The translations under genes were made by a program, and so were the position numbers. Of a DNA stretch of 64,000 nt, positions 25,951 to 48,342 are shown one piece after another. The notes below the pieces were generated by a model, which was not told the DNA's origin, did no database searches, and was given only the letters and a program-made list of their open reading frames with translations. The stretch is taken from the NCBI GenBank assembly GCA_963698385.1, contig CAVOQP010000010.1, positions 529,518-593,517 on the forward strand, in the 5' to 3' direction. Position 1 is the first letter of the stretch; the number at the start of each line of letters is the position of its first letter. The stretch comes from an uncultured Acidimicrobiia bacterium. Its GTDB lineage: Bacteria > Actinomycetota > Acidimicrobiia > Spongiisociales > JAENVV01.

Positions 25951-25976
25951 GGCGGTCGGGCGCACGACTGACGAAG

Positions 25977-27583: not shown

Positions 27584-27601
27584 TTGTGAAACGGATTACA
27601 A
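27584..27601 (+). promoter_or_regulatory. Candidate Rex-type operator TTGTGAA-ACGG-ATTACAA upstream of nsrR-nosZ
   Basis: 12/14 match to the Rex operator consensus TTGTGAA-N4-TTCACAA, 33 nt upstream of the nsrR start. It could alternatively be the Rrf2 site. Confidence 0.35.
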
Positions 27602-27633
27602 TCGGATATAGACTCCGGGAGTCAACAACTCTC

Positions 27634-28026
27634 ATGCGACTCGAACTCACCAGGAAGACCGACCTAGCCCTCCGAGTGCTCAGGGCACTCTCCGGGAAGG
27701 GCCGCGTCCCACGGAAGGACCTTGCCGATCAGGCCGGGACCACGCCGCAGTTTCTCGCTCGGGTGATGAGTCCGCTCGTGAAGAGCGGTCTGGTCGAATC
27801 CAAGCCGGGGACTGCCGGTGGCTACGCCCTCGTGAGCGACCCCTGCACCATCTCGGTGCTCGACCTGATCGAAGTGATGGAGGGGCCGGTCATCAACGGG
27901 CGATGTGTGCTGCAGGGAGGGCTGTGTCCCGCCGACGGGAACTGCTCACTCCACACGGCCTGGTCGAGGGCTCGGGAAGCACTGATGGAAGAACTGAACG
28001 CCACAACCGTGGCGGACTGCAACTGA
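27634..28026 (+). CDS. nsrR: Rrf2-family transcriptional regulator with three-Cys Fe-S ligand set (NsrR/IscR-like)
   Basis: MRLELTRKTDLALRVL wHTH domain, then C..x..C..x..C (CVLQGGLCPADGNCSLH). Directly upstream of nosZ. Confidence 0.75.
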   Translation: MRLELTRKTDLALRVLRALSGKGRVPRKDLADQAGTTPQFLARVMSPLVKSGLVESKPGTAGGYALVSDPCTISVLDLIEVMEGPVINGRCVLQGGLCPADGNCSLHTAWSRAREALMEELNATTVADCN

Positions 28027-28044
28027 GGAGAAGGAGAACCCCTC

Positions 28045-30048
28045 ATGTCCGGACTGGACACGCCGGTGGAGCGTAAGCGCATCACGTGGCAAACCCTGCT
28101 GGCGATTGCCAGCGTGCTCATGCTGATCTTCGCGGCCTGTACGTCAGGTTCGAGTACTGCAGATGTCGGTGCCGACATCATCGAGGCTCGCGGCCTGACC
28201 GATGCCGACGTCGAAGCTGCCCTGAAGACCTTCACCCCTTCGGGTACCCACGACGAATACCTCCTGTTCGCCTCCGGCGGACACGGTGGCCAGATCGGCA
28301 TCATCGGTGTGCCGTCGATGCGCCTCCTGAAGGTGATCGCCGTGTTCACACCCGAACCCTGGCAAGGCTGGGGCTACGGCGACCTGAAGACAGAAGAAGT
28401 CCTGTCCTCCGGCGACGTCAACGGCATCGAGGTCCGTTGGGCCGACACCCACCACCCCGCCCTCTCCGAGACCGGCGGCGACTACGACGGCCAGTTCGTA
28501 TTCATCAACGACAAAGCCAACGCCCGCATCGCGGTCGTCGATCTTCGCGACTTCGAGACGAAGCAGATCGTCAAGAACCCCATCGCCATCAATGACCACG
28601 GCGGGACCATGGTCACCCCCGACACCGACTGGATCATCGAAGGCGGGCAGTACGCCACACCGCTGGCCGGTGAGTGGGCACCGATCGAGGACTACGTCGA
28701 GTCCTACCGCGGCATGGTGACGTTCTGGAAGTTCGATCGGGATAGCGGCCGCGTCCTCGAGGACCAGTCCTTCGCCATGGAACTCCCGCCCTACTGGCAG
28801 GACCTGTGTGACGCCGGCAAGCTCGTCTCCGACGGATGGGTGTTCTGCAACTCCTTCAACGTCGAGATGGCAACCGGTGGTGTCGAGGACGGCAACCCGC
28901 CATTCGAGGCCGGTGCATCGGCGCGCGACAACGACTATCTCCATGTCATCAATCTCGAGGCCGCCGTGGCAGCGAGGGATGCTGGCAAGACCGTCGACAT
29001 GAACGGCTTCCCCGTCATCGAGCTGCAAACCAGCATCGACGAGGGCCTGCTCTACTTCGTGCCAGAGCCCAAGAGCCCACATGGTGTCGACATCACCCCC
29101 AAGGGCGACTACCTCGTCATCTCCGGCAAGCTCGACCCGCACAGCACGATCTACTCATTCGAGAAGATCCAGCAGGCGATCGCGGACGAGAACTGGACCC
29201 CCGACGAGTTCGGTGTGCCGGTCCTCGACTTCGACGCGGTGCTCGAGGCCCAGGTCGAGTTGGGACTCGGTCCGCTCCACACCCAGTTCGACGACAAGGG
29301 CTACGCCTACACGTCGCTCTTCCTCGACTCGGCCGTCGCACGTTGGACCCTCGGGCCCAACTACGACCCACCTGAGGAGCCATGGACCCTGGTGACGAAG
29401 ACCCCGGTGCAGTACAACGTCGGTCACCTTGTCACCGCAGAAGGAGACACCGTCTCACCGGACGGCAAGTACCTGGTGTCACTGAACAAGTGGGCGATCG
29501 ACCGCTTCGCCGACGTCGGCCCGCTGCTCCCGCAGAACTTCCAGCTGGTCGACATCTCCCAAACCGGAGAGACGATGCCGGTGATCTACGACATGCCGAT
29601 CGGGTGGGGCGAACCGCACTACGCGCAGATCATCAAGGCTGACAAGCTGAACGCATGGCAGACGTACCCAGAGGTCGGCTTTGACCCCGGCACGATGTCG
29701 GTTGACCCCGACGCCCCCCAGTTGGGCAACGAGCGGATCGAGCGCAATGGCACCGAAGTGGAGATCTGGATGACCGCCATCCGCTCACACTTCACGCCCG
29801 AGCATGTCTCGCTCAAGCAGGGTGACCATGTCATCTGGCACATCACCAACGTGGAAACGTCCCACGACGCCACCCACGGCTTCGCGCTGCCAGGCTACAA
29901 CGTCAACCTCTCACTGGAACCAGGCGAAACGGCGTCGTTCGAGTTCGATGCAGTGAACGCAGGTGTGTACACCTACTACTGCACGGAATTCTGCTCCGCC
30001 CTCCACTTGGAGATGACGGGATACCTCATGATCGAGCCAAACTCCTAA
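28045..30048 (+). CDS. nosZ: Nitrous-oxide reductase, Sec/lipoprotein-type signal (clade II-like)
   Basis: Seven-blade propeller region and C-terminal CuA cupredoxin motif HGF...CTEFCSALHLEM. N-terminus has lipobox LIFAAC and no twin-arginine. Confidence 0.9.
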   Translation: MSGLDTPVERKRITWQTLLAIASVLMLIFAACTSGSSTADVGADIIEARGLTDADVEAALKTFTPSGTHDEYLLFASGGHGGQIGIIGVPSMRLLKVIAVFTPEPWQGWGYGDLKTEEVLSSGDVNGIEVRWADTHHPALSETGGDYDGQFVFINDKANARIAVVDLRDFETKQIVKNPIAINDHGGTMVTPDTDWIIEGGQYATPLAGEWAPIEDYVESYRGMVTFWKFDRDSGRVLEDQSFAMELPPYWQDLCDAGKLVSDGWVFCNSFNVEMATGGVEDGNPPFEAGASARDNDYLHVINLEAAVAARDAGKTVDMNGFPVIELQTSIDEGLLYFVPEPKSPHGVDITPKGDYLVISGKLDPHSTIYSFEKIQQAIADENWTPDEFGVPVLDFDAVLEAQVELGLGPLHTQFDDKGYAYTSLFLDSAVARWTLGPNYDPPEEPWTLVTKTPVQYNVGHLVTAEGDTVSPDGKYLVSLNKWAIDRFADVGPLLPQNFQLVDISQTGETMPVIYDMPIGWGEPHYAQIIKADKLNAWQTYPEVGFDPGTMSVDPDAPQLGNERIERNGTEVEIWMTAIRSHFTPEHVSLKQGDHVIWHITNVETSHDATHGFALPGYNVNLSLEPGETASFEFDAVNAGVYTYYCTEFCSALHLEMTGYLMIEPNS

Positions 30049-30071
30049 ACGCAACGAAGACTGGAGAAACG

Positions 30072-30728
30072 ATGGAGGCCACCAATCGTTTCCTCGGCCC
30101 CCGGGTCCCGAAAGAGACCCGGGGGCGGAGGGAATTCAGACTCCCTACGATCTTCTTCGTCAGCGCAGCCGTGCTGTTGTTGGCGTCGATCTTCGTTCCC
30201 TACTGGCGCCTGAACCTTGCCGCGCCCCAGTTCCCCAAGGGACTCATCGTCGACATCTACGTCAACGAGATGGCCGGGGACGTCGACCTCCTCGAGGGGC
30301 TCAACCACTATGTGGGACTCCCCGGGTTCGACGAAGGCGCGACACTCGAGCGCCAGATCGCCGTTGCCGGCATCCTGGCGGTCGTGGGTGCGCTCGCAGC
30401 GGGATTGTTCATCCACAGCAAATGGATCGTCCTGTTCACGCTTCCCACGCTCACGTTCCCGCTGGTGTTCCTGGCTGACCTTCAGTATTGGCTCTGGCAC
30501 TACGGGCACTCGCTCGACCCACTGGCACCGTTCGCCAGCGCCGTCGGCGAGTTCACCCCACCGGTGCTGGGACCATCCAAGATCGCCCAGTTCGACACCA
30601 TGGCCCTACCCCACGTCGGCCTCATCATGGCCTTCACCGCCACCGCACTCGTGATCCTCGGCCTTCGGGCCCATCGCAAGGTGTACGAGCCGTTGTTCGA
30701 GGCAGCCGATGAGGCACCGGTTGCATAG
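30072..30728 (+). CDS. NosB-like integral membrane protein (clade II nos accessory)
   Basis: 218 aa, about 5-6 TM, immediately after nosZ as in clade II clusters. Confidence 0.55.
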   Translation: MEATNRFLGPRVPKETRGRREFRLPTIFFVSAAVLLLASIFVPYWRLNLAAPQFPKGLIVDIYVNEMAGDVDLLEGLNHYVGLPGFDEGATLERQIAVAGILAVVGALAAGLFIHSKWIVLFTLPTLTFPLVFLADLQYWLWHYGHSLDPLAPFASAVGEFTPPVLGPSKIAQFDTMALPHVGLIMAFTATALVILGLRAHRKVYEPLFEAADEAPVA

Positions 30729-32166
30729 GCGCCCGGGTACAGGGCCCATCGGTCGAGCGGCGCACCTCAAGGCGCCGAAACGGTCGGGGTACCTGCTGCC
30801 CGGCGGGTCCCGCACGCTCACCCGTCTCCTGGTGGTGGTGCTCGTCGTGGCCGGCGTGGCGACGACCTCCCCGGCACACGCGGTGGACGACCTCCAGGGC
30901 CTCATCGACGGCGCCGAGGCCGGGTCGGAGCTCCTGGTCCCGGCCGGGACGTACAGCCCGATCGTCATCGACAAGCCGATCACCCTCCAGGGCATCGGCA
31001 ACCCTGTCATCGACGGCCACGGAGAGGGAACCGTGGTCACCATCAACGCCGACGACGTCACCATCACCGGCTTCACGATCCGGTCGTCCGGCCGATCTCT
31101 CGACCACGAGGATTCCGGCGTCTTTGCCCAAGGCGCCAGGATCACCGTCACCCACAACGTCTTCGAGGACGTCCTCTTCGGCATCTACCTACGCCTCGGA
31201 GAGGACTCGGTCATCACTCACAACGTCATCGGAGCCAAGGATCTCGAGTCGGGGCGACGCGGGGATCCCGTGAAGCTCTGGGAGAGCCCGCGCACACTCT
31301 TTGCCGACAACTCCGTCCAGAGCGGCCGTGACGTCGTGCTCTGGTACTCCGAGGGGATCGTCATCCGGGACAACGTGATCCAGGACGGTCGCTACGGCCT
31401 CCACTTCATGTACAGCCACGACGCCATGGTCTCTGGCAACACGCTCCGGGACAACTCTGTCGGGGCGTTCCTCATGTACTCCTACAACTTGACCTTCAAC
31501 GACAACCTCGTCGTGGGCAACCACGGGCCATCCGGGTACGGGATGGGGCTCAAGGACATGGACGGCGTGGAGGCGTCCGGCAATGAGTTCATCGGCAACC
31601 GCATTGGGATCTACCTCGACAACTCCCCCACCAAGGTCGACCTCATCCAACACTTCACCGACAACCTCATCGCCCACAACGACGTCGGTGTCATGCTGCT
31701 TCCCGCTGTCCAAGGCAACGTGTTCTCGGGCAACGCCTTCGTCGAGAACCGCGAACAGGTCGGCGTTGCCGGATCCGGTACCCCTCGCAACAACGATTGG
31801 GCGGCCAACGGCATCGGCAACCACTGGAGCGACTTCGCCGGCTATGACGCCGACGGCGACGGGTTGGGAGACATCCCCCACCGGGTCGACGACCTCTTTT
31901 CTGCCCTCACCGATACGAAGTCCGAACTCATGATCTTCTCCGGGTCGCCCGCAGCCAGGCTCATCGACGCCGCCGCCAGGGCCTTCCCGACGCTCCGACC
32001 CGAACCGAAGGCGATCGACCCTTCGCCCCTCGTGGATCTCCCCTCGTTTGCCGCGCCCTCGGGGGCGTCGGCGCCCTTCGGCGTTACGCTCCTCGGGACC
32101 CTCCTCCTTGGGCTGGCAGCACTCATCGTCACCGCCGGTCGCCCACGCCGGGAGCTCCGCCCATGA
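30709..32166 (+). CDS. nosD: NosD, periplasmic right-handed beta-helix copper-processing protein
   Basis: Repeated beta-helix motifs (NVI.DN..G.., GNR.G.YL.NS) with signal peptide. Confidence 0.85.
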   Translation: MRHRLHRRPGTGPIGRAAHLKAPKRSGYLLPGGSRTLTRLLVVVLVVAGVATTSPAHAVDDLQGLIDGAEAGSELLVPAGTYSPIVIDKPITLQGIGNPVIDGHGEGTVVTINADDVTITGFTIRSSGRSLDHEDSGVFAQGARITVTHNVFEDVLFGIYLRLGEDSVITHNVIGAKDLESGRRGDPVKLWESPRTLFADNSVQSGRDVVLWYSEGIVIRDNVIQDGRYGLHFMYSHDAMVSGNTLRDNSVGAFLMYSYNLTFNDNLVVGNHGPSGYGMGLKDMDGVEASGNEFIGNRIGIYLDNSPTKVDLIQHFTDNLIAHNDVGVMLLPAVQGNVFSGNAFVENREQVGVAGSGTPRNNDWAANGIGNHWSDFAGYDADGDGLGDIPHRVDDLFSALTDTKSELMIFSGSPAARLIDAAARAFPTLRPEPKAIDPSPLVDLPSFAAPSGASAPFGVTLLGTLLLGLAALIVTAGRPRRELRP

Positions 32167-33017
32167 TCTCCATCACGAACCTCACCAAGCGCTACGGCTC
32201 CCAACTGGCGCTTGACGACGTGTCGATCGAGATCCCCGCCGGCGACGCGATCGCGCTCTGGGGCCACAACGGCGCCGGCAAGACGACCATCGTCCGCTCG
32301 ATCCTCGGCCTCATCCACTACCAGGGCGGGATCACGGTCGGCGGTCATGACGCGTTCTCGGAGGGGATCGCCGTTCGCCACCTCATCGGCCATGTACCCC
32401 AGGAACTCTCCTTCCACGATGAACTCACCGTGGCGGAGACGATGGAGTTCTCCTGCGCCCTCAAGGGCGTCAGCGGCGCACGGGCCAGGGAAGTCCTGGC
32501 CCAGGTGGGACTCGAGGGAGAGCTCGGCAAGAGGGTCGGGGCCCTCTCCGGGGGAATGAAGCAGCGCCTCGCCATCGGCCTCGCCCTGCTGGCCAACCCA
32601 CCCGTCCTGCTCCTCGACGAGCCGACCTCCAACCTGGATGCGGCCACCCGCGAGCAGATGGTCCACGTGCTGCAGGACCTGAAATCCGAGCAAAGGACCC
32701 TGGTACTCACCTCCCACAACCTCGGGGAAGTCGGCCTGCTGGCAGACCGGGTCATCACCCTCGAACACGGCCGAGTCGTGCTCGAATGCAGCCCCGGCGA
32801 ACTCGACGCGAAGCTCGGGATCTCGACCTGGCTCCATGTCACCGTCAAACAAGACGAGATCAGCCGAGCCATCGAGGCGATCCTCGGGATTGGCATGAAG
32901 GCTCGCAGCAACGGGACCGGCATCCTCGTCGAGGCGCCCGCCCAGGAGAAGGCCAAGGCCCTCGCGGTACTCGCCGCAGCCGGTGTCGATGTCCAGGACT
33001 TCGAGGTGTGGCGATGA
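32163..33017 (+). CDS. nosF: NosF ABC transporter ATP-binding protein
   Basis: GHNGAGKTT Walker A, LSGGMKQRLAIG signature, LLLDEPTSNLD Walker B. Confidence 0.85.
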   Translation: MISITNLTKRYGSQLALDDVSIEIPAGDAIALWGHNGAGKTTIVRSILGLIHYQGGITVGGHDAFSEGIAVRHLIGHVPQELSFHDELTVAETMEFSCALKGVSGARAREVLAQVGLEGELGKRVGALSGGMKQRLAIGLALLANPPVLLLDEPTSNLDAATREQMVHVLQDLKSEQRTLVLTSHNLGEVGLLADRVITLEHGRVVLECSPGELDAKLGISTWLHVTVKQDEISRAIEAILGIGMKARSNGTGILVEAPAQEKAKALAVLAAAGVDVQDFEVWR

Positions 33018-33847
33018 ACGGGCACTGGAACGCCATCCGAACCGTGGCCCGCAAGGAACTGCGGGAATCGATCCGCAACCGTTGGTTGTGGGCCATGGCC
33101 TCCGGCTTCGCACTCATCGCAGTAGCTCTCACCCTCGTGGGGCTTCCCGGCGCCCGAACCGTGGGGGCCGGGGGGTTCGGGCGCACCGCGGCGTCGTTGG
33201 TGGCCCTTGCCCAGCTCATGGCACCGCTCCTCGGGCTCACGGTGGGTGCCCAGGCGCTGGCCACGGCACGTGAGCGGGGGACCCTTCGCTTCGTGCTGTC
33301 ACACCCAATCGGCCGCTCCGACGTCCTCGCAGGGATGTTCCTGGGCTTGGGGAGCGCGGTCTGGGCGGCCGTGCTTGCCGGGTTCGGCGCCGCTGCGCTG
33401 GTGAGCGCGGCCCTGGGCTCCGCGGGACCGGCCGCGGTCGTCTTCACACTCACGGTCCTCTCCGGGTTGCTCGCCACGGCAATGCTCGCCCTCGGGATGG
33501 CCATCGGTGCCGGGAAGCGCGAGGCCTCCACGGCCCTCGGCACGGCCATCTTCATCTGGCTGCTGCTCGTGTTCGCAGGGGACCTGGGAATCATGGGGTC
33601 GGCCATTGCCGTCAAGATGCCGGTGAGCATCCTGTTCTTCTCGGTGATGATCAACCCGGTGGAGGCCTTCCGCATGCTGGCTGTGCCGTTCTTCGCCACA
33701 TCACTCGACGTGCTCGGGCCCGCCGGCTCCTATGCAGTCGACACACTGGGGTCCTTGGCACCCGCCACCGGCGCAGTGGTGTTGGCAGCGTGGATCGTCA
33801 TCCCCGGCGTGTTTGCATTGCGGCGATTCAATCGGAGTGACTTCTGA
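33014..33847 (+). CDS. nosY: NosY ABC-2 type permease
   Basis: 6 TM. ATG overlaps the nosF stop (ATGA). Confidence 0.8.
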   Translation: MNGHWNAIRTVARKELRESIRNRWLWAMASGFALIAVALTLVGLPGARTVGAGGFGRTAASLVALAQLMAPLLGLTVGAQALATARERGTLRFVLSHPIGRSDVLAGMFLGLGSAVWAAVLAGFGAAALVSAALGSAGPAAVVFTLTVLSGLLATAMLALGMAIGAGKREASTALGTAIFIWLLLVFAGDLGIMGSAIAVKMPVSILFFSVMINPVEAFRMLAVPFFATSLDVLGPAGSYAVDTLGSLAPATGAVVLAAWIVIPGVFALRRFNRSDF

Positions 33848-34443
33848 TGACCCCCCACCGAGCCCGAGCGTCGAGCCCGAGCCAGCGGCGCCGAAGCCCA
33901 CACGTGCTCGTGCTGGTGCTCGCGCTCGGGCTGTTCGCGGCCGCCTGCTCCACCTCCGTCAACCTCGATGAACCGCCTGGGCTGAACGTCGGCCGGGACA
34001 TCTGCGCCCGGTGCGGCATGATCATCGAGGACGTCAGGTTCGCCGCCGGCTTTCGGCTTGAGGACGGCACGTCCCGGGTGTTCGACGACATCGGCGGGAT
34101 GTTGGCATGGGGCAAGCTCTCCGGAGAACTCGAAGGGGCCCGCGTCTGGGTCCACGACTACCACTCGGAGTCGTGGGTCGATGCGACGACCGCTACATTT
34201 GTCCTGTCATCCGATATCCCGACGCCGATGGCGTTCGGCATCGCCGCCTTCTCCACCAGGGAGGCAGCGGAGGCCTTCGCCCAGGAGTTGGATGCCATGG
34301 TCCACAGCTGGGACGATGTCTCGGCCATGGGCGAGGCAGGAGAACTCGAAGATCACCACGGCGAAGGAGCCGAGGGAGCCAACGCAGACCATGCAACCCA
34401 TGCGTCCGAGTCGGAGGTAGAGCATGCACACACTGATTCCTAA
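33847..34443 (+). CDS. nosL: NosL copper-chaperone lipoprotein
   Basis: Lipobox LFAAAC and DICARCGMII motif. Confidence 0.8.
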   Translation: MTPHRARASSPSQRRRSPHVLVLVLALGLFAAACSTSVNLDEPPGLNVGRDICARCGMIIEDVRFAAGFRLEDGTSRVFDDIGGMLAWGKLSGELEGARVWVHDYHSESWVDATTATFVLSSDIPTPMAFGIAAFSTREAAEAFAQELDAMVHSWDDVSAMGEAGELEDHHGEGAEGANADHATHASESEVEHAHTDS

Positions 34444-34468
34444 CCGGAACCCAAGAAAGGAACCAACC

Positions 34469-34873
34469 ATGAAGAAGAGCACGATCGCGATCCTCTTCAC
34501 TGTCCTCGCTCTGATGGTCGCCGCGTGCGGCGGCGGGAGTGACGGCGACGGTGGGACCGCCGCGACCGAAGCTCCATCCGGAGCCGGCTCCGGCGGCGAT
34601 GCAGCCAACGGCGAGAAGGTCTTCGCCGGCACCTGCTCGGCCTGCCACGGTGCAGACGCAATGGGCATCGACGGTCTCGGCAAGCAGCTTGTCGAGTCCG
34701 AATTCGTCGCGAGCCAATCCGACAGTGAGCTTTTCACGCTCATCACGACCGGACGCCCCTCAAGCGATCCCCTCAACACGACAGGCGTCGACATGCCTCC
34801 CAAGGGCGGCAACCCTTCGCTCAACGATGCGGCGATTGCCGATCTCGTCGCCTACCTCAGGTCCCTGGCCTAG
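34469..34873 (+). CDS. Mono-heme c-type cytochrome lipoprotein (probable electron donor to NosZ)
   Basis: AAAGGAACCAACC then ATG. Lipobox LMVAAC and CSACHG heme-binding motif. Confidence 0.75.
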   Translation: MKKSTIAILFTVLALMVAACGGGSDGDGGTAATEAPSGAGSGGDAANGEKVFAGTCSACHGADAMGIDGLGKQLVESEFVASQSDSELFTLITTGRPSSDPLNTTGVDMPPKGGNPSLNDAAIADLVAYLRSLA

Positions 34874-37805: not shown

Positions 37806-37822
37806 TGGTCTAGAGTGTGGCC

Positions 37823-38572: not shown

Positions 38573-40405
38573 ATGACGTGGATCCCTGACGCGGCGACGG
38601 TGGCCGGGGCCAACCTCACTCGAGCAATCGCCGATCGTGGACTCGAGTCGTATGCCGACTTCCATGCGTGGTCGGTGACCGACCGAGCAGCGTTCTGGAC
38701 CGACGTGGTCGACCGACTCGGGATCGCCTTTGCCCGTGGTCCTGCCGCTGTCCTCGGGTCCGGGGATCCACTCGATCCGCAGTGGATGCGCGGCGCGCTC
38801 CTCAACATCGCCGAAAGCTGTTTCACGGGTGACCCCACCGGGACAGCCGTCATCCACGGGACCGGGACCACATGCACCCGGGTCACCTTCGGGAAGCTCC
38901 AACAGGATGTCTGGCGGTTCGCCAACGGACTCGACGCCCTCGGCCTCGGCCCCGGCGATCGGGTCGGAGTCGCCATGCCGATGACCTATCAGTCGGTGGT
39001 CGCCTATCTCGGCACGGTGTGGGCCGGCGGGACGGTCGTCTCGATCGCCGACTCGTTCGCACCTCCGGAGATCGCCACCCGGCTACGAATCGCTGATGCC
39101 CACCTCGTCGTCACCCAAGACCGGGTCGAGCGCGGCGGGAAGGAGCTCCCGATGGCGGCCAAGGTCTTGGCGGCCGGGGCCGAGCGGGCGGTCGTCGTCG
39201 ACACCGGTGGCCCGATCAGGTCGAGGCCCGGGGATCTCGACTGGACCGCGTTCATGGCGGATCCCACCGAACGCCCCGCGACCCGAACCGCGCCCCACCA
39301 CAGGACGAACATCCTCTTCTCGTCGGGTACCACCGGCGATCCAAAGGCGATCCCGTGGACCCAGGTGACCCCGATCAAGGCCGCCATGGACGGGTACTTC
39401 CACCAGGACATCCATGCTTCCGACGTCGTGGCCTGGCCGACGAACCTCGGATGGATGATGGGTCCGTGGCTCATCTACGCCACGCTCATCAACGGGGCCA
39501 CCATGGCCCTCCACGATGACGTGCCCACAGGCCATTCGTTCGCCGACTTCGTCGAGTCGGCGGGGGTCACGATCCTCGGCGTGGTCCCGAGCCTCGTCGC
39601 CTCGTGGCGAGCCACAGGTGTGTTGTGCGAGGCGGATTGGAGCCGGGTCCGACTCTTCAGCACAACAGGTGAAGCCTCGAAGGCGGCCGACATGGAGTGG
39701 CTGATGGAGGTTGGCGGGGGAAAACCGGTGATCGAGTACTGCGGTGGCACCGAGATCGGGGGCGGCTACCTCACTTCGACCGTACTCCACCCCTCGGTGC
39801 CCTCCCACTTCACCACTGCCGCCCTTGGCCTCGACCTGATGATCCTCGACGACAAGGGCCACCCGGGGGAGATCGGCGAGGTGTTCCTCGAACCACCTTC
39901 GATCGGGCTCTCGGAGACACTCCTCAACAGCGATCACTTCACCGTCTACCACGCGGAGGCACCTGCACTCGGCGGCCGCACCCTCCGCCGCCACGGGGAT
40001 GAGGTGATTCGCCTCCCTGACGGGACCTACCGAGTACTGGGGAGGGCGGACGACACGATGAACCTCGGCGGAATCAAGGTGGGGTCAGCGGAGCTCGAAC
40101 GGGCGATCGCCGATACCCCGGGCCTGGCGGACTGCGCCGCCGTCGCAGTGGCATCGGATGGGGGCGGCCCTGCCATGCTGGTGATCTTCGCCGTGGCCGC
40201 GACCGGGACAGACCCCGAGGAGCTGAGAACGGCATTCACGGTCGGGATCAGGGAACGACTCAATCCCCTCTTCAAGGTGGCGAGAGTGGTGATCGTCGAT
40301 GCGCTCCCGCGGACGGCATCAGGAAAGGTGATGCGCCGGGAGCTACGCGACCGGGCTGCTGTCCAGGACGAGAAGCCCCTCGCGGACGCAGACGCAGACG
40401 CCTAG
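38573..40405 (+). CDS. AMP-dependent synthetase/ligase (acetyl-/acyl-CoA synthetase family)
   Basis: FSSGTTGDPK AMP-binding motif, ...GRADDTMNLGGIKV, ...PRTASGKVMRR. Confidence 0.8.
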   Translation: MTWIPDAATVAGANLTRAIADRGLESYADFHAWSVTDRAAFWTDVVDRLGIAFARGPAAVLGSGDPLDPQWMRGALLNIAESCFTGDPTGTAVIHGTGTTCTRVTFGKLQQDVWRFANGLDALGLGPGDRVGVAMPMTYQSVVAYLGTVWAGGTVVSIADSFAPPEIATRLRIADAHLVVTQDRVERGGKELPMAAKVLAAGAERAVVVDTGGPIRSRPGDLDWTAFMADPTERPATRTAPHHRTNILFSSGTTGDPKAIPWTQVTPIKAAMDGYFHQDIHASDVVAWPTNLGWMMGPWLIYATLINGATMALHDDVPTGHSFADFVESAGVTILGVVPSLVASWRATGVLCEADWSRVRLFSTTGEASKAADMEWLMEVGGGKPVIEYCGGTEIGGGYLTSTVLHPSVPSHFTTAALGLDLMILDDKGHPGEIGEVFLEPPSIGLSETLLNSDHFTVYHAEAPALGGRTLRRHGDEVIRLPDGTYRVLGRADDTMNLGGIKVGSAELERAIADTPGLADCAAVAVASDGGGPAMLVIFAVAATGTDPEELRTAFTVGIRERLNPLFKVARVVIVDALPRTASGKVMRRELRDRAAVQDEKPLADADADA

Positions 40406-40758
40406 ATGTCCTTGTCCTGCTCTTGCTCCCACTTGCCCAAGGCCGTGAGGAACATGAAGAACAGGATCGTGGAGACGATCATCCAGCTGAGGGGGATGAT
40501 CCGGATCTCGAAGTTGTTGAGTCCTTCGAAGTTGGCCGGCTTGGGGCCCCGCGGGGCGTACATGACGAACAGAAGGGAGTTGATCGCCATCCACCCCGAC
40601 AGGCCTGCTCCAACGACGAGGAAGGCCAGTTTCTTGCCGAGATTGGTGGCGTTGATGAGGTACACCGACCCGTAGAACACGAGGATCGCCGACAGCACCA
40701 GGACGATGCCGGTGAACAGGACACTTGAGCTCAACAGCTCCCGCATGAGTTCTCGCAT
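40402..40758 (-). CDS. Small 3-TM membrane protein (last gene of the bc-complex operon)
   Basis: 118 aa and hydrophobic. Overlaps the stop of the upstream cytochrome c gene. Confidence 0.5.
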   Translation of the reverse strand: MRELMRELLSSSVLFTGIVLVLSAILVFYGSVYLINATNLGKKLAFLVVGAGLSGWMAINSLLFVMYAPRGPKPANFEGLNNFEIRIIPLSWMIVSTILFFMFLTALGKWEQEQDKDI

Positions 40759-42281
40759 CAGTTGCCTCCTCCGAGCGCTGGACCGCCCAAGGTGTCGCCC
40801 AGCAGGTATGTGGCCAGCAGGTCGAGGTCGGCCTGGGAGAGCAAACCACCGAACCCGGGCATGTACCCGCGGCCGATGCCGTTCACGCCGTAGGGCTGGC
40901 CCGACACGGAGCCCGAGGCGATGAAGCCGGCCAGGCTCACGGCGTCACCGAACTGGACCGTCGCCCTGGGTGGCAGCAACGATGGCCCGAACCCGCCGGC
41001 GCCGATCGGGCCCTGGAACGCCGCCCCGGCCGAGTATCCGGTGGTGTGACATCGCGAGCAGTTGGCGTTGAAGAGGTTGATGGCTCGTTGGGCCGAGGCG
41101 CGGTCGCCACTGAATGAAGCGTCCGCCACCGCATCGATGTCGACCTCCCACAGCGCACCTGAGATGGCGTCGGTCAAATAGTCGAGCCCACCCTGGAACC
41201 GCTCGAGGGTCCGGGCCTTGGTCTCGGCCGCCACCTCGAAGAGCTGGATCGTCTTGATGATTCTCGAGAAGTCGCCTTCCACGACGTGGCCGCCCTCGTC
41301 GGTGTAGCCGTGGAACACGTCGCCGTCGTCGGTGACCCCGTTCGTCCTTGGGTTCCGCGGGTCGAGGTCGAGGTCGGGTATCAGCACGGGCGTCACGCCG
41401 AGTACCTCGTACTCCTTGAGCCCGAGGGCTGCCACCTCGGCGAAGAGCCCGGGGAGGAGGTTCTCGGCATTGTCGGAGAGGCCGTCCCGGTCGACGTCGA
41501 CGCCGTCGTCCTCCGAGAGGGCCACGATCTTCTCACCGATGACAGAGAGGGCCGGGGCGAAGCGCCCCGCATCGTTGGCGAATGCGACCAGCGTCTGCTG
41601 GGATGCCAGCAGCGCGGCCGCCGCGTCGCCGCTTCCTTCGAGCCTGGCCTGGGCGACTGCCACGTCGCCTTCGATGAGGTTGAGCGCCTCGGCCTGGGTG
41701 AGTTGGACCGACTCGATGTAGTTGAGGAGGTCTTCGACCTCCTGGTCGTTGAGGGGTCCGCCCCCAGCGAGACCCCACGCCGGCATCGGGGTCCCCGGGC
41801 GCCCGTACTCGATCCAGAACTTGACCTCGTCGCGGCTGTACCGATACATGATCGTGTCGAGTCGGGGAGCCAGCCAACTGACAGCCACGTTGGACCGGCC
41901 CTCGACGAAGGAGGCCACGCCCCCGGACAGCCCCGGTCCATGACACCCGGCGCAGTCGAGTCCACCGTCGGCGGTGGTGGCCGCAGCCGCGGTCCCGCGC
42001 GCCAGCGACTCCGCCTCGAAGTCGTGGGCGAACCCGGCCTGGCGGTCGGTCTCACCGAGGAAGTACACCGGCATCGAGATGGCGAGGAAAGCAGCGAAGA
42101 TGACCGACCAGGCCAGGGCCTTGTCGAGTCGGGGACCCTCCAGTTCGTCGTTCGGCATCCCCGGGCGCAGGTTCGCCGGGACCTTCTCCTTGCCCTTCCC
42201 ACGCACGGAGCCGACGACCATGTACGACAACCAGGTGACGACCGCGACCGCGGCGAGCACCATGACGAGACTGTTCAGCAT
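40758..42281 (-). CDS. Membrane-anchored di-heme c-type cytochrome
   Basis: AAAGGAG RBS. N-terminal TM segment, then CAGCHG and CSRCHT heme motifs. Confidence 0.8.
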   Translation of the reverse strand: MLNSLVMVLAAVAVVTWLSYMVVGSVRGKGKEKVPANLRPGMPNDELEGPRLDKALAWSVIFAAFLAISMPVYFLGETDRQAGFAHDFEAESLARGTAAAATTADGGLDCAGCHGPGLSGGVASFVEGRSNVAVSWLAPRLDTIMYRYSRDEVKFWIEYGRPGTPMPAWGLAGGGPLNDQEVEDLLNYIESVQLTQAEALNLIEGDVAVAQARLEGSGDAAAALLASQQTLVAFANDAGRFAPALSVIGEKIVALSEDDGVDVDRDGLSDNAENLLPGLFAEVAALGLKEYEVLGVTPVLIPDLDLDPRNPRTNGVTDDGDVFHGYTDEGGHVVEGDFSRIIKTIQLFEVAAETKARTLERFQGGLDYLTDAISGALWEVDIDAVADASFSGDRASAQRAINLFNANCSRCHTTGYSAGAAFQGPIGAGGFGPSLLPPRATVQFGDAVSLAGFIASGSVSGQPYGVNGIGRGYMPGFGGLLSQADLDLLATYLLGDTLGGPALGGGN

Positions 42282-42300
42282 GTTGTCAGCTCCTTTCTCG

Positions 42301-43158
42301 TCAGATGCAGGACGGGCCCTGCGGGTACTTCACGGACTTACGGACGGCACGAGATGTCTCGATGATCTGGCCGGTGCTGATGATGAACCGGTTGCGATCG
42401 TTCACCGCCACGACGAAGCGGTCGAGGTTGCGAGGCGCCGGGCCGGCGATGTATTCACCGGCGGCGTTGTACTTCGATCCGTGGCAGGGGCACTCGAATC
42501 CCTGTGACGGTGTGCACCACGGGACCCGGCAGCCGAGGTGCACGCAGGTCTGGTAGAGGGCGACCAGGTTGTGGTCGACCGTCGAGTTTCCCTCGAACTG
42601 GGACCCGGTCACCGACTCCGGCAGCATTGGGATGACGTAGGCGCGGGCCTCCGGGAGGAACAGCGGGCTGATGGTCCCGTCGGCGTTGAGGACCTTGGCC
42701 AGGATCTCGTCGGCATCGCCACCATCGATGTCCGCCCCGAAGCCGCCCTTCACCTTCGGCCACATGAAGGCAAAGGCGCTCATCCCGAAACCGGCGAGGA
42801 AGGTCCCCCACATGGCAAGGAGGGCACGGTTCAGGAACATGCGGCGGGTGACGCCTTGCTCGTCGGGGGTGGCCTCGACGTAGTCCACGACGACGGGGGA
42901 CTCCTCGGCCACTTCGGTGAGGACCATCGTGTCGCCGGTCCCGGCGTCCGCCACGGCATCCGCCACTGCGTGCTCCTCGGCGACCTGGGCAGTGGCGATC
43001 ATCACCGGGACCTCGGAGCGCTTGTCGGCCTTGGCGGCCTTCTCGTCGACCCTCGCCTTCCAGCCCGGGTCGTTGCTCCGGCGGTAGGCAATCGTGAAGG
43101 CGGCCGCAGCAGCAAGGACGGCAACCGCCGCCAGCGCAATCGGGAGCAGGTCGGTCAT
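42301..43158 (-). CDS. Rieske [2Fe-2S] iron-sulfur subunit of a cytochrome bc/b6f-type complex
   Basis: CVHLGC...CPCHGS Rieske boxes with an N-terminal TM anchor. The long N-terminal extension of ORF 42301..43473 is rejected. Confidence 0.85.
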   Translation of the reverse strand: MTDLLPIALAAVAVLAAAAAFTIAYRRSNDPGWKARVDEKAAKADKRSEVPVMIATAQVAEEHAVADAVADAGTGDTMVLTEVAEESPVVVDYVEATPDEQGVTRRMFLNRALLAMWGTFLAGFGMSAFAFMWPKVKGGFGADIDGGDADEILAKVLNADGTISPLFLPEARAYVIPMLPESVTGSQFEGNSTVDHNLVALYQTCVHLGCRVPWCTPSQGFECPCHGSKYNAAGEYIAGPAPRNLDRFVVAVNDRNRFIISTGQIIETSRAVRKSVKYPQGPSCI

Positions 43159-43967
43159 CAGTGGCCTCCGAGGTCCGCGAAGTGGACCCAGTCCTTGAGA
43201 TCGTCGAAGAAGATCCCATCGTTCCACGGGTAGACGAAGTTGAAGCCCGGACCCCGGAAGAGGACACCGAACATCGTGAGCGTCGCCGCGCCCATCAGGA
43301 AGAACGTGAACATGAAGATCACGAACTTGCGATCGGATGGCTTGGTCGAAGGGTTCTTGTCGATGTAGGGCACGGCCATGAGCCCGAACAGACCGGTGAT
43401 GAGCGGGACCGACACACCTGCGACCGCAGGGTCGAAGTAGGAAAGGAGTTCCTGCAAGCCGAGGAAGTACCACGGGGCCTTCGACGGGTTGGGGGTGGCG
43501 TTGAAGTTCGCGGCCTCGAGCAGCGGAGCCTGGAGGATGGTCGAGAGAACGATGAGGATCCCGGTGACCGCGAGAAGAGCCGCGAACTCGATGATCATCA
43601 GGTGCGGCCAGGTGTTCACCTTGTCCTGGGGTTCGACCTTGGCCTGCTGAATCGCCTTGGCCTTGACGACGGTGAGGAGACGCTGGGTCCGCACACCCTC
43701 CGGGCCCGAGACCGCCGGGGCGACCGGGCGCACCGAGGTGGCTTTCGACGGGTCACCGGTCATCACCACTGCGGCAGGCACCGGTGCAGCCGCAGGAGCA
43801 GCCGCGACAGCCGGTGCCGGTTCCGCGGCGGGTACGGCCGCAACGGGCGCGGCAGTCGGGGGCGCTTCGCCCTTCAGTTGGGCCATCGCTTCCTCGACCG
43901 AGATGCCGAGTGCTTTCGCCTTGGCCTCCGCCGACCGGCGGAGTAGGTGTTCGGGGAGTTCAGCCAT
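43158..43967 (-). CDS. Cytochrome b C-terminal (subunit IV-like) protein with extra N-terminal cytoplasmic module
   Basis: PWYFLGLQELLSYF motif of cytochrome b6f subunit IV / cytochrome b C-terminus. N-terminus MAELPEHLLRRSAEAKAKALGISVEE resembles the N-termini of 47560 and 48343. Confidence 0.75.
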   Translation of the reverse strand: MAELPEHLLRRSAEAKAKALGISVEEAMAQLKGEAPPTAAPVAAVPAAEPAPAVAAAPAAAPVPAAVVMTGDPSKATSVRPVAPAVSGPEGVRTQRLLTVVKAKAIQQAKVEPQDKVNTWPHLMIIEFAALLAVTGILIVLSTILQAPLLEAANFNATPNPSKAPWYFLGLQELLSYFDPAVAGVSVPLITGLFGLMAVPYIDKNPSTKPSDRKFVIFMFTFFLMGAATLTMFGVLFRGPGFNFVYPWNDGIFFDDLKDWVHFADLGGH

Positions 43968-43979
43968 CGCACCTTCTCC

Positions 43980-44741
43980 TTACAGCGGCCCAGAGATGCC
44001 GCCATCCTTCCGGACACGCCAGAAGTGGACGGCCATGAAGATGACGATGATGAATGGGAAGAAGAGGACATGGAGCACGTACCAGCGGAGGAGGGTGTCG
44101 GCCGACACCACCGCCGAGCCCAGCAGGGTGAACTTCACCTGGCTCCCGAAGACCGGCACGAACGACGCCATGTTCGTTCCCACGGTGACGGCCCAGAGGG
44201 CCAACTGGTCCCACGGCAGGAGGTAGCCGGTGAAGGAGAGAAGGAGAGTGAGGAGCAGGAGCACGACGCCGACCACCCAGTTGAACTCGCGGGGCGGCTT
44301 GTAGGCACCGTGGTAGAAGACCCGGCTCATGTGGAGGAAGACCGTGAGCACCATGAAGTGGGCTCCCCACCGGTGCATGTTCCGCACGAGGGACCCGAAC
44401 GCCACGGAGGTCGAGAGCTCCTGGATGTCCTGGTAGGCAGCCTCGGCGGTCGGGGCGTAATAGAACATGAGGAAGATGCCGGTGATCGTCAGCAGGATGA
44501 AGAGGAAGAAGCTGAGGCCCCCGAGGCACAGGGTGTAGGAGAGCCGAACGCTGTGCCGCTTCACCTTGACCGGGTGGAGGTGATAGAGCACGTTGTTCAT
44601 GATCACGTAGGAGCGGTTGCGGGGGCTGTCCGTGTACCCCTTCTTGAAGGGGGACCCCGGCCGGAGGATCGAGTCCATGAGCGGACTGCCATGCAGGGCC
44701 GACGGAAGCTCTTTGACCTTGTTGAGGAGTTTCTGCACCAC
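43980..44741 (-). CDS. Cytochrome b6-like (N-terminal half of a split cytochrome b; bis-His heme b ligands)
   Basis: 4 TM with His pairs ([10 protein letters not shown], ...HVLFFPF...HFW). GTG start at VVQKLLNKV is an inference. Confidence 0.75.
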
Positions 44742-44746
44742 TGTTC

Positions 44747-45199
44747 TCACATCCCGCGAATGCCGTAGACGAACCCGTTCTTGTGGTCCCGCTCGCCCGA
44801 GTCGATCTCCCACGGGGCGGGGAGACCTTCCTGCTCGGCGGTGGCGGAGACCGAACCTTCGAACTTGCCGAGGGTGATCACGCCCGTGGGGCACCGGTCG
44901 ATGCAGAGCGCGCACCGGGTGCAGGTGTCCTCGTCCACGAGGAAGAAGCCGAACGCCTCGGGGTCATCGTGGGGATCGGCCACACCGGATGCATCGCGGA
45001 TGGCGTCGATCGAGAGGTAGTGGATGCACTTCCAGGGACAGATATCGACGCAGCCCTCACACAGGATGCATTCGGCTTGGTCGATGTGGAGGAACTGCTT
45101 GGGTCTGACCTGCTTGAGCAGGTAGTCGCCTTCGACCAGGGCGAGGGTGTAGTCGTCGCGGATCGGGGGGACTTCGAAGTAGACCTCGGTGCGGGCCAT
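44747..45199 (-). CDS. 2x[4Fe-4S] ferredoxin-type subunit
   Basis: [12 protein letters not shown] and [16 protein letters not shown] overlap with the upstream gene. Confidence 0.8.
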
Positions 45200-45831: not shown

Positions 45832-46153
45832 GCGAGCCGTCGATGCCTGTCTTGGGTCGGTGTTCCTGTTCGCGGCGATGCCCGTGGGAGGCCAGGGCGT
45901 CGGCGCCATGTTTAGCAGAATCACCCTACCGACATCGAAACGGGATCAAGGTCCGGATCGCCGTCGAGGACGGGTCCCGGGGCGTCGGAGGCCGGGACCG
46001 AGCGGCGGCTGGAAGGCGGGTTTTGACGCTCCCCATCCGGAGAGCGAGAATGCGTGACGCCGGCGCGGGTTCGCGTCGGGCGAGGGAGCATGAAGGAGTC
46101 GCGGACCGGTAGGCTGCGGCCGTCTCCGACCGAGGAAAGAGAAGGAGTTGGGG

Positions 46154-48336: not shown

Positions 48337-48342
48337 GTGCCG

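Follow-up and report, generated by a model that had tools for sequence, protein, structure and literature searches.

The locus examined here raises the question of whether a set of nos genes in an uncultured Acidimicrobiia bacterium encodes a complete system for the reduction of the greenhouse gas N2O to N2, and how electrons would reach the reductase with neither nosR nor nosGH nearby. The window, i.e. the whole stretch of DNA that was analysed, is 64,000 nucleotides (64 kb) in length. As an explanation of the whole, the sequence indicates that the locus is probably a complete, working operon for a clade II nitrous-oxide reductase, in a monoderm member of the Acidimicrobiia known only from assemblies. 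The first-pass annotation had recognized the operon correctly, yet it is an ordinary one, with a layout frequently met in uncultured Acidimicrobiia and Chloroflexota genomes. What is new here consists of small details on its probable regulation and electron supply.

Genes of the nos operon

Eight genes, all intact, were identified at positions 27634-34873 of the window on the forward strand, in the order Rrf2 regulator, NosZ, NosB, NosD, NosF, NosY, NosL and monohaem cytochrome c. The first-pass annotation had described a compact clade II-style cluster with the same coordinates, and each of its genes was confirmed:

27634..28026, + strand: Rrf2-family transcription regulator, first gene of the operon, motif C-x6-C-x5-C-x2-H (PF02082, TIGR00738)
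28045..30048, + strand: NosZ, clade II (Sec-dependent) nitrous-oxide reductase, predicted lipoprotein with Cys32 (TIGR04246, CuZ/CuA ligands, lipobox)
30072..30728, + strand: NosB, four-helix membrane protein with an extracytoplasmic beta-sheet (BLASTP to reference NosB, motifs, AlphaFold2 model)
30709..32166, + strand: NosD, beta-helix maturation protein, signal at the N-terminus and membrane anchor at the C-terminus (TIGR04247, PF05048)
32163..33017, + strand: NosF, ABC ATPase (PF00005, ABC_tran, 105.5 bits)
33014..33847, + strand: NosY, ABC-2 permease (PF12679, ABC2_membrane_2, 106.5 bits)
33847..34443, + strand: NosL, predicted copper chaperone lipoprotein, lipobox FAAAC, CxxCGMII motif (PF05573)
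34424..34873 (probable ATG 34469), + strand: monohaem class I cytochrome c, predicted lipoprotein (PF00034, PF13442; lipobox MVAAC; CSACH)

With intergenic distances between -20 and +25 nt, these genes are packed as in an operon; the start of nosF overlaps the stop of nosD by 4 nt, and the start of nosY likewise overlaps the stop of nosF. The GC content between 28 and 32 kb is 0.63-0.64, slightly under the 0.67 of the whole window.

NosZ exceeds the cut-off of the NCBIfam model for the Sec-dependent enzyme (TIGR04246; 811.9 bits, cut-off 625) and remains under those of the TAT (clade I) model (390.7 bits, cut-off 625) and the L-NosZ model (192 bits). All seven His ligands of CuZ and the Cys/His/Met ligands of CuA align with those of the solved NosZ 5i5i. 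The N-terminus of the protein (MSGLDTPVERKRITWQTLLAIASVLMLIFAAC) possesses a lipobox, IFAAC, placing a Cys at residue 32 that is kept in 28 of 28 NosZ relatives inspected. This N-terminus has no twin arginine, its sole basic cluster being R-K-R, and a hidden Tat extension is impossible since just six in-frame codons precede the ATG. Judged from motifs and family membership, NosZ is predicted to be exported via Sec rather than Tat and to carry a lipid anchor. The first-pass description of a Sec-exported clade II lipoprotein is thus upheld; clade I affinity combined with a cryptic Tat motif, named there as contrary evidence, appears neither in the model scores nor in the N-terminus. The apoenzyme would be exported unfolded and then fixed by a lipid anchor to the outer side of the cytoplasmic membrane, as a cell without a periplasm requires. 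NosZ of Wolinella succinogenes is periplasmic and has a C-terminal cytochrome c domain.

The gene for a transmembrane protein following nosZ, earlier called nosB-like, encodes a true NosB on the basis of homology and shared motifs. BLASTP against NosB of Sulfurimonas denitrificans and NosB(-NosC2) of Sulfurospirillum (reference sequences from Text S1 of PMC11409646) gave 29-30% identity (E 7e-25 and 2e-22), and its motifs LNHYVGL and YGHS have as counterparts LNHYIGM and YGHN, quoted in PMC9697520. The sequence is without a match in Pfam, NCBIfam or the PDB, and its AlphaFold2 model (mean pLDDT 90) gave weak claudin/TARP-like matches to known folds.

The nosDFYL genes are present and intact, as first annotated. 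NosD passes TIGR04247 (402 bits, cut-off 300), also matches PF05048 and possesses hydrophobic segments at residues 33-59 and 453-479; its sole match in the PDB is NosD of Pseudomonas stutzeri (7o0y_A, E 1e-38). Similarly, the sole PDB match of NosY is P. stutzeri NosY (7o0y_D, E 7e-25), while those of NosL (PF05573; 52.3 bits, cut-off 24) are confined to NosL structures 7znq_L and 7osf_H, with CGMII aligned. The naming of NosF is based on gene context, and its place in the cluster is kept in 59 loci. Loading of NosZ with copper (and sulfide) would be carried out by NosDFY and lipoprotein NosL, as in the solved NosDFY-NosL-NosZ system of P. stutzeri.

Relatives of the operon

Related loci were taken as the best 80 in a collection holding one genome per species. 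The order nosZ-B-D-F-Y-L was found in 59 of them, across several phyla, with 17 more cut by contig ends. MAGs of Acidimicrobiia/Actinomycetota with the same cluster account for 24 of these best 80 loci, such NosZ proteins are already named in NCBI, and nosZ has been described in 8% of genomes of UBA5794, a group of uncultured actinobacteria (PMC12008989); the first-pass view that clade II enzymes are unusual in high-GC Gram-positives does not hold. The same order across phyla, together with a neighbouring cytochrome c, suggests a selected, working unit.

Chloroflexota MAGs (Anaerolineales, Ardenticatenaceae, Promineifilaceae, Caldilineaceae) and other Acidimicrobiia MAGs show equal gene order and content, with a lipobox-bearing NosZ (66-90% identical), NosB after nosZ, cytochrome c after nosL and, as here, neither nosGH nor nosR nearby. 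Some Chloroflexota NosZ have been reported with Tat signals (PMC11409646), which the NosZ described here does not have. Bacillota endospore-formers (thermospore MAGs, bioRxiv 10.1101/2024.05.17.594689; Schinkia acidoalkalinis CFF1, PMC13274427) are likewise monoderm, and their clade II clusters resemble the present one in encoding a Sec-type NosZ, nosB, nosDYF with or without nosL, and an adjoining c-type cytochrome, with nosGH not among the genes described. However, their cytochrome gene (nosC) lies ahead of nosZ, not after nosL as here, and nosL is often absent and no Rrf2 gene is described, both being present here.

In W. succinogenes and other Campylobacterota, the clade II order is nosZ-B-D-G-C1-C2-H-F-Y-L (Hein et al. 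2017). A clade II NosZ and a NosB homologue are shared with these clusters, but their NosGH quinol-dehydrogenase module and NosC1/C2 are not found in the window, nor is the fusion of NosB to NosC2 that occurs in relatives. Clade I clusters, nosRZDFYL(X) of P. stutzeri and Paracoccus, have a catalytic core of NosZ and a NosDFY-NosL machinery for maturation that are homologous to those here; they differ in employing Tat export, NosR and NosX/ApbE and in being without NosB.

The identity of NosZ to Chloroflexota proteins is 73-76%, and in a ranking by identity the loci of Acidimicrobiia and Chloroflexota are intermixed, which suggests a transfer between phyla at some time. A reading of the cluster as silent or gained by horizontal transfer, and as supporting no N2O respiration in its host, is nevertheless highly improbable. 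In its favour, beyond this identity pattern, are the lower GC content noted above and the finding of no nir, nor or nar genes in the 64-kb window. Against it, all eight ORFs are intact, the metal ligands are conserved, and the cluster is accompanied by a regulator specific to the lineage and by conserved motifs upstream. Furthermore, the chromosomal flanks of the operon are common to its relative L001 (NosZ 90% identical), so the cluster is stably resident.

Electron supply to NosZ

The absence of nosR, nosX/apbE and nosGH from the window, as first reported, was borne out by Pfam scans of its other predicted ORFs, which revealed no NosR/FMN_bind, ApbE or NrfC/NrfD-like proteins; the sole CxxCxxCxxxC ferredoxin in the window is a small two-cluster protein within a bc operon (below). 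The electron-delivery genes nosGH had also been noted as missing, but their absence is the norm for this NosZ subclade: in all 80 related loci, which come from several phyla, the sequence up to 10 kb from nosZ encodes no NosG-like polyferredoxin (at least three ferredoxin motifs per ORF), and nosB-containing clusters of Bacillota are the same in this respect (PMC13274427, bioRxiv 10.1101/2024.05.17.594689). It is thus quite improbable that the operon is not self-sufficient and that a NosGH- or NosR-type module elsewhere in the genome serves NosZ, even though the gene search covered 64 kb of a contig of at least 751 kb and W. succinogenes requires NosGH-C1-C2 (Hein et al. 2017, as cited in later work). 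One of the Bacillota organisms with nosB and without nosGH described respires N2O (PMC13274427), and nosR accompanies clade I (PMC11409646).

The cytochrome c annotated at the end of the operon was confirmed and is a predicted lipoprotein. It has a single haem motif, CSACH, and generic class I features, matching the NCBIfam cytochrome c551 model weakly (42.6 bits, cut-off 118) and showing no specific similarity to NosC2 (E 0.014). Of the 59 complete loci, 53 have a homologue no more than 1.5 kb from the cluster. A putative reductase for this cytochrome is encoded 5.9 kb downstream of the nos operon on the opposite strand:

40402..45945, - strand: Rieske/cytochrome b6-type complex operon, candidate menaquinol:cytochrome c reductase for the nos cytochrome c (NF040969 and operon content)

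Its cytochrome b6 passes NF040969 (ExtP; 306 bits, cut-off 290), and the operon also encodes a b6f-type Rieske protein, a subunit IV-like protein, a dihaem cytochrome c and the two-cluster [4Fe-4S] ferredoxin. The genes between the two operons are unrelated (alcohol dehydrogenase, FAD oxidoreductase, Rex, AMP-ligase). The same bc operon lies ~3-4 kb 5' of cytC-Rrf2-nosZ in L030 and L071, and within 10 kb of nos in just two of 24 actinobacterial loci; the linkage could be ordinary synteny, with another bc or ACIII complex elsewhere as donor. A Rieske/cytochrome bc complex is required for clade II N2O respiration in W. succinogenes (title of Hein et al. 2017, as cited in later work), and for Schinkia CFF1, a Bacillota isolate with nosBDLYF and an adjoining c-type cytochrome, the growth model includes QcrABC (PMC13274427). 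Electrons would pass from menaquinol through a Rieske/cytochrome b complex, for which the leading candidate is the b6-type complex encoded ~6 kb downstream, to the membrane-anchored cytochrome c of the operon and on to CuA of NosZ; neither NosGH nor NosR would take part.

The cytochrome c and bc-type complex are plausible as the donors first suggested, two relatives sharing the bc operon next to their nos cluster, but a CcoO-like module put forward with them is not a plausible donor. It is part of an oxidase-like unit and would thus be an electron sink, and the CcoN-like subunit of that unit has only five His, with both HH and HxH motifs absent.

It is also conceivable, although unlikely, that the bc complex is bypassed and NosB, alone or with the cytochrome c, is a menaquinol dehydrogenase feeding NosZ directly. 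NosB adjoins nosZ throughout the NosZ subclade of related loci, is essential in W. succinogenes (PMC9697520, PMC13274427) and carries a fused cytochrome c domain in Campylobacterota, and a confident model places its universally conserved His79 and His146 at the outer face of the membrane. However, these are the only two His conserved with Sulfurimonas NosB and both lie on the same membrane side; a transmembrane dihaem wire would need more. Motifs for haem c, Fe-S clusters or known quinone sites are absent from NosB, which belongs to no Pfam or NCBIfam family, and the fusion of NosB to the copper chaperone NosL in Bacteroidota (PMC9697520) points to copper handling. With the Rieske/cytochrome b route preferred, NosB would act beside NosZ and be required as in Wolinella, its candidate roles being docking, copper handling and electron transfer.

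Regulator and upstream region

The first gene of the operon encodes an Rrf2-family protein (PF02082, 99.5 bits; TIGR00738, 89.9 bits, cut-off 73.3) whose three Cys are kept in most orthologues adjoining nosZ. An Rrf2 gene was found at the nos cluster in 23 of the 24 Actinomycetota-labelled loci and in two loci of unclassified bacteria, in contrast to none of the 54 labelled with other phyla. It had been annotated as NsrR, an identity that is unproven: the protein scores far under the NsrR equivalog cut-off (28 bits vs 182) and in a PDB ranking resembles NsrR no more than IscR, CymR or RsrR, with NsrR placed below IscR-like, CymR and RsrR proteins, so that it is better described as a three-Cys Rrf2 protein. 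With NsrR (Streptomyces coelicolor 5n07, E. coli PRK11014), an NO-sensing [4Fe-4S] repressor, it has in common the Rrf2 fold, a length of ~130 aa, three clustered Cys and a position heading a nitrogen-oxide respiration operon. Its N-terminal K-T-D-L-A-L-R presumably resembles the NsrR N-terminus, while its spacing C-x6-C-x5-C-x2-H probably resembles the IscR ligand set (three Cys and a His).

Two candidate sites were read from the sequence upstream of this gene:

27585..27600, no strand assigned: CRP/FNR-family-type inverted repeat TGTGAAACGGATTACA, candidate activator site
27611..27623, no strand assigned: perfect 6-1-6 palindrome GACTCC-G-GGAGTC, candidate Rrf2 operator, 11 nt 5' of the Rrf2 ATG

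Transcription would start 5' of the Rrf2 gene, where promoter hexamers are ambiguous. Besides this palindrome, the window has no perfect match to GACTC-N3-GAGTC, and relatives possess palindromes or a common GAGTCAA/GACTCAG core at the same place 5' of their Rrf2 genes; tested singly against shuffles, such palindromes reached p <= 0.05 in one of 22 loci. NsrR sites are AT-rich, whereas this candidate operator is GC-rich. The Rrf2 protein, of Fe-S type, probably controls its own operon at this palindrome, and a protein of the CRP/FNR family probably does so at the upstream box, which has the form TGTGA-N6-TTACA. Boxes with at most one mismatch to TGTGA-N6-TCACA start 41-61 nt 5' of the Rrf2 start in L015, L038, L063 and L066, and this type of box is ~57-fold enriched upstream (five matches in 3.3 kb of upstream windows vs 37 in 1.39 Mb overall). 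The sequence TTGTGAA is kept in an alignment of the window with L001 and L015.

The nos operon and its NosZ

G+C content is approximately 67% across the whole window. Between positions 27634 and 34873, the forward strand carries eight ORFs, all intact and all with the distribution of GC over codon positions that is expected of real genes:

Genes of the nos operon and the matches by which they were named
27634-28026 (+), Rrf2 regulator (PF02082, 99.5 bits)
28045-30048 (+), NosZ (TIGR04246, 811.9 bits; cut-off 625)
30072-30728 (+), NosB, a 218-aa membrane protein without a family match, homologous to reference NosB
30709-32166 (+), NosD (TIGR04247, 402 bits; cut-off 300)
32163-33017 (+), NosF, ABC ATPase (PF00005, ABC_tran; named from context only)
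33014-33847 (+), NosY, ABC-2 permease (PF12679, ABC2_membrane_2)
33847-34443 (+), NosL, copper lipoprotein (PF05573, 52.3 bits; cut-off 24)
34424/34469-34873 (+), monohaem cytochrome c (PF00034; haem motif CSACH)

The intergenic distances are, in order, 18, 23, -20, -4, -4, -1 and 25 nt, and because of this spacing (-20 to 25 nt) the genes are considered to form a single operon. A promoter scan of this operon found a single, weak sigma-70-like site, and no terminator seen after the cytochrome c gene was convincing. The NosDFY-NosL maturation set is encoded together (the beta-helix protein NosD, an ABC ATPase, an ABC-2 permease and NosL), with NosD, NosY and NosL each matching in the PDB only their P. 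stutzeri counterparts in solved maturation complexes. ORFs, family scans and PDB matches agree with the first-pass annotation, whose coordinates and gene list were exact.

NosZ passes the Sec-dependent model of the family (TIGR04246) and fails the lactonase-type model of clade III (L-NosZ, NF052460; 192 bits, cut-off 700). Alignment with 5i5i, a solved NosZ in the PDB, showed the full ligand complement, seven histidines for CuZ and His/Cys/Cys/His/Met for CuA, in the motifs DTHHP, NDHGG, KSPHG, GPLHT, NVGHL, GEPHY, DATHGF and CTEFCSALHLEM. The N-terminus, MSGLDTPVERKRITWQTLLAIASVLMLIFAAC, ends in a lipobox with Cys32; a lipobox cysteine was found at the same place in all of the NosZ relatives inspected (28/28). 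Using the pattern [LIVMFWSTAG](2)-[LIVMFYSTAGCQ]-[AGS]-C at the end of the signal peptide, lipoboxes were identified in NosZ (IFAAC), NosL (FAAAC) and the cytochrome c (MVAAC), and these three proteins are predicted to be lipoproteins.

A clade I (TAT-exported) enzyme is excluded by the score on the TAT model TIGR04244 (390.7 bits; cut-off 625), by the absence of RR and by there being no nosR in the window. The first 40 residues possess R-K-R only in this motif-level test, and six codons separate the ATG from the preceding in-frame stop, with no upstream in-frame extension. The enzyme therefore belongs to clade II as first annotated: neither clade I affinity nor a cryptic Tat motif was found. 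It shares with known clade II enzymes the Sec model, the ligands, a signal free of RR (at motif level) and an adjacent nosB, and has none of the marks of clade I (a score above the TAT model cut-off, a twin arginine, an adjacent nosR). Comparable clusters in Bacillota consist of a cytochrome c gene, nosZ, nosB and nosDYF, with or without nosL (bioRxiv 10.1101/2024.05.17.594689; PMC13274427).

The first-pass annotation had also listed nosR, nosX and nosGH as missing from the window, and this holds. In Pfam scans of the remaining predicted ORFs of the window, neither NosR nor ApbE/NosX nor an NrfC/NrfD-like NosGH was found, the last being a module of an NrfC-like four-cluster ferredoxin and an NrfD-like membrane protein. 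In a six-frame search of the window, CxxCxxCxxxC was present in two ORFs only: it occurs once in a GMC oxidoreductase-like protein, and the other ORF is a 149-aa two-cluster ferredoxin (44750-45196). The latter was rejected as NosG, as it has two clusters only, lacks a signal peptide and sits inside a Rieske/cytochrome b6-type operon (the bc operon).

NosB

No sequence match to the 218-aa membrane protein encoded 23 nt past nosZ was found in Pfam, NCBIfam or the PDB. BLASTP against reference NosB and NosB-NosC2 sequences (Text S1 of PMC11409646) showed 29% identity over 215 residues to NosB of Sulfurimonas denitrificans (E 7e-25) and 30% identity to that of Sulfurospirillum multivorans (E 2e-22). 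The stretches LNHYIGM and YGHN have been described as conserved in NosB (PMC9697520); the window protein carries LNHYVGL (residues 77-83) and YGHS (144-147). Among 50 homologues, no substitution occurs at N78, H79, Y80 or G82, and H146 is conserved in at least 90%. By homology and motifs, the protein is identified as NosB, as the nosB-like transmembrane gene noted on first reading had implied.

Its AlphaFold2 model (mean pLDDT 90, pTM 0.85) has four transmembrane helices and an extracytoplasmic beta-sheet formed by two outer loops. His79 and His146, the only histidines common to the window protein and NosB of Campylobacterota, are both placed by the model at the outer membrane face. A role in electron transfer or copper handling has been proposed for NosB in the literature (PMC9697520). 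Fold searches gave at best weak claudin/TARP-like matches (E 1.8e-3; query-normalised TM-scores 0.3-0.56), too weak for homology to these folds to be accepted.

Several NosB homologues of Acidimicrobiia and Actinomycetota (P0144, P0151, P0181 and P0187) are named 'cytochrome C' by NCBI; these are proteins of about 220 aa in which a haem motif is absent, and the label may have been inherited from NosB-NosC2 fusions. One JGI entry labels a NosB 'copper chaperone NosL'.

Distribution, synteny and regulation

The cluster had at first been thought unusual in high-GC Gram-positive bacteria. A search for NosZ homologues returned thousands of matches, the 120 listed being 68-100% identical; several of those listed are named "Sec-dependent nitrous-oxide reductase" and come from Acidimicrobiia, Anaerolineales, Ardenticatenaceae and Chloroflexota MAGs. 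In a collection holding one genome per species, 458 stretches encode NosZ relatives, and the best 80 loci were compared. Twenty-four of these are labelled Acidimicrobiia, Acidimicrobiaceae, Actinobacteria or Actinomycetota, while the rest are mostly Chloroflexota. By tblastn with the window proteins, the order nosZ-B-D-F-Y-L is found in 59 of the best 80; a further 17 are truncated at contig ends, and four are exceptions. Of the 59 complete loci, 53 encode a homologue of the cytochrome c no more than 1.5 kb away (after nosL in 47, before nosZ in 7). None of the 80 (10-kb flanks) contains an ORF in which CxxCxxCxxxC occurs three or more times, and for this NosZ subclade a compact cluster lacking nosGH is the standard arrangement. 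Its rarity was thus overstated, since 24 of the best 80 loci are actinobacterial and have the same cluster.

In the literature searched, Acidimicrobiia or Actinobacteriota with clade II nosZ were mentioned only in passing, and no paper was found that examined an actinobacterial NosZ biochemically or physiologically. In UBA5794, a group of uncultured actinobacteria, nosZ occurs in 8% of genomes (PMC12008989). The nosB gene has been called the hallmark of clade II clusters, and in one survey every Chloroflexota MAG with nosZ had nosB (PMC11409646). The Acidimicrobiia nos cluster is already on database record and little discussed in papers.

The closest relatives of the locus are MAGs with isolate names starting "Mix_sand". 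In the closest locus (L001), NosZ is 90% identical and the flanks share with the window an MFS gene, an uncharacterised gene, a PD-(D/E)XK gene and an alcohol dehydrogenase gene; because of these common flanks, the cluster is regarded as resident and not recently inserted. No tRNA or Rfam family was found in the 64-kb window, and hence nothing points to an integrative element within it. The PD-(D/E)XK nuclease-family protein (25972-27474, +) is encoded directly upstream of the nos operon and keeps this position in L001 (69% identity).

The regulator heading the operon was first named NsrR. It reaches 28.2 bits on the NsrR equivalog NF008240 (cut-off 182), and in the PDB ranking 5n07, NsrR of S. 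coelicolor, is tenth (E 8e-8), after an IscR-like protein, CymR, RsrR and IscR. The name is therefore too specific, although three cysteines in the pattern C-x6-C-x5-C-x2-H do fit NsrR as candidate Fe-S ligands. These are kept in most orthologues next to nosZ, with the middle one missing in one subgroup, and the protein is plausibly an Fe-S sensor. Among the best 80 loci, an Rrf2 gene is part of the cluster in 23 of the 24 labelled Actinomycetota and in two of unclassified bacteria, compared with none of the 54 of other phyla.

Upstream of the Rrf2 gene, two sites were identified, both as candidates only:

27585-27600, CRP-type box TGTGAAACGGATTACA
27611-27623, perfect palindrome GACTCC-G-GGAGTC

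A CRP-type box (at most one mismatch to TGTGA-N6-TCACA) also starts 41-61 nt before the Rrf2 gene in four other Acidimicrobiia loci; the density is 5 matches in 3.3 kb of upstream windows versus 37 in 1.39 Mb overall. A second group of Acidimicrobiia nos loci (L008, L030, L052, L070 and L075) has instead a GGGAC-N4-GTCCC-like palindrome, often followed by TAT, 69-96 nt upstream of the Rrf2 start. The palindrome at 27611-27623 is the sole perfect match to GACTC-N3-GAGTC within the window, and relatives have palindromes or a common GAGTCAA core at the matching position. A search for inverted repeats found none at its seed settings, palindromes tested locus by locus exceeded shuffled sequence significantly in one of 22 loci only, and GACTC-N3-GAGTC with one mismatch was not enriched in the window (4 matches, 5.5 expected). 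The palindrome is therefore kept as a candidate Rrf2 operator.

Electron supply and wider reading

Downstream of the nos operon lie the following features:

37814-38434 (+), Rex redox-sensing repressor
40402-45945 (-), bc operon of Rieske/cytochrome b6 type, six kb downstream of the nos operon
40402-40944 (-), membrane protein of the bc operon
44750-45196 (-), two-cluster [4Fe-4S] ferredoxin, an extra gene of the bc operon
45199-45945 (-), further membrane protein of the bc operon
46094-47563 (+), CcoN-like subunit of an oxidase-like module (70.7 bits on ccoN; cut-off 583)
47416-48336 (+), CcoO/FixO-like monohaem protein (CWTCH)
48337-49269 (+), second cytochrome c of the oxidase-like module (CVSCH)

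The cytochrome b6 of the bc operon passes the 'ExtP' model, which comes from the Geobacter selenite/tellurite-reduction operon (306 bits; cut-off 290), and the operon further encodes a subunit IV-like protein, a b6f-type Rieske protein and a 523-aa dihaem cytochrome c. It was also found in one related nosZ locus (L030, 871-6151) and in part in another (L071), approximately 3-4 kb upstream of cytC-Rrf2-nosZ; these are two of the 24 actinobacterial loci only. In both of these Acidimicrobiia loci, as in the window, the nos cluster is separated from the bc operon by a Rex gene (L030, 8174-8788; L071, 3409-4023), among others. According to papers citing Hein et al. (2017), W. succinogenes needs a Rieske/cytochrome bc complex for its clade II N2O respiration, and the growth model of the monoderm Schinkia CFF1 includes QcrABC (PMC13274427). 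On the strength of the bc operon's contents, its synteny in L030 and L071 and these two precedents, we favour a route in which electrons would pass from menaquinol through the Rieske/b6 complex and the lipoprotein cytochrome c to CuA of NosZ. When this cytochrome was compared with the NosC2 domain of NosB-NosC2 from Sulfurimonas, the alignment covered the neighbourhood of the haem motif alone (E 0.014); with no specific likeness, the name NosC2 was withheld.

The CcoO-like module had been put forward as another donor. Its CcoN-like neighbour falls far below the ccoN cut-off, possesses five histidines in 490 codons, lacks both HH and HxH motifs and so appears to be without the usual CuB and haem ligand set; on these grounds the module was rejected as donor. 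The module (46094-49269, +) is transcribed divergently from the bc operon, and may represent a haem-copper oxidase scaffold that has degenerated or been put to another use.

Of the original interpretation, the clade II lipoprotein NosZ, nosB, nosDFYL, the cytochrome c and the lack of nosR, nosX and nosGH in the window stand; it went too far in calling the cluster unusual, in naming the regulator NsrR and in proposing the CcoO-like module as donor. The operon joins a well-populated known kind and leaves the current picture of nos gene clusters unchanged: it is one more well-assembled Acidimicrobiia example, and shows that in this lineage the whole maturation set is accompanied by a cytochrome c of its own. 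New details, at the level of sequence comparison and prediction, are the lineage-specific Rrf2 linkage, the candidate CRP-type box, the recurrent ExtP-type bc neighbourhood and the confidently predicted NosB model.

NosZ is the sole known biological sink of N2O, and clade II enzymes of non-denitrifiers are thought to dominate this sink in many habitats. Actinomycetota, as far as we are aware, are generally without soluble cytochrome c. We tentatively propose, as a possibility somewhat short of an even chance, that N2O respiration in Acidimicrobiia uses a self-contained, fully membrane-anchored chain undescribed in any cultured actinobacterium. It would consist of an ExtP-type Rieske/b6 complex to which a two-cluster [4Fe-4S] ferredoxin is added as an extra subunit, a lipoprotein cytochrome c dedicated to this chain and a lipoprotein NosZ beside NosB, controlled by a lineage-specific three-Cys Rrf2 sensor (not a strict NsrR) and a CRP/FNR-type activator site. 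If true, this would be the first model of the regulation and bioenergetics of N2O reduction in actinobacteria, and would show how a phylum poor in soluble cytochrome c feeds a cytochrome-c-dependent enzyme. Since the nos operon is a clean one, with candidates for both a regulator site and a bc-type donor, and no such study of an actinobacterial NosZ was found in the papers searched, it is a reasonable start for expression or enrichment work.

Elsewhere in the window, two large divergent proteins (2-2215, -; 2434-5451, +) each combine an adenylate/guanylate cyclase domain at the N-terminus with an AAA ATPase region after it. A series of low-complexity ORFs rich in Val, Ala, Gly and Thr, with long poly-V and poly-T stretches and no family match, occupies 15999-18082 (-), and GC skew is strongly negative (-0.19) at these ORFs, across 16-18 kb. 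A small Rdx-family (SelW/SelT-like redox) protein (PF10262) is encoded at 24904-25131 (+).
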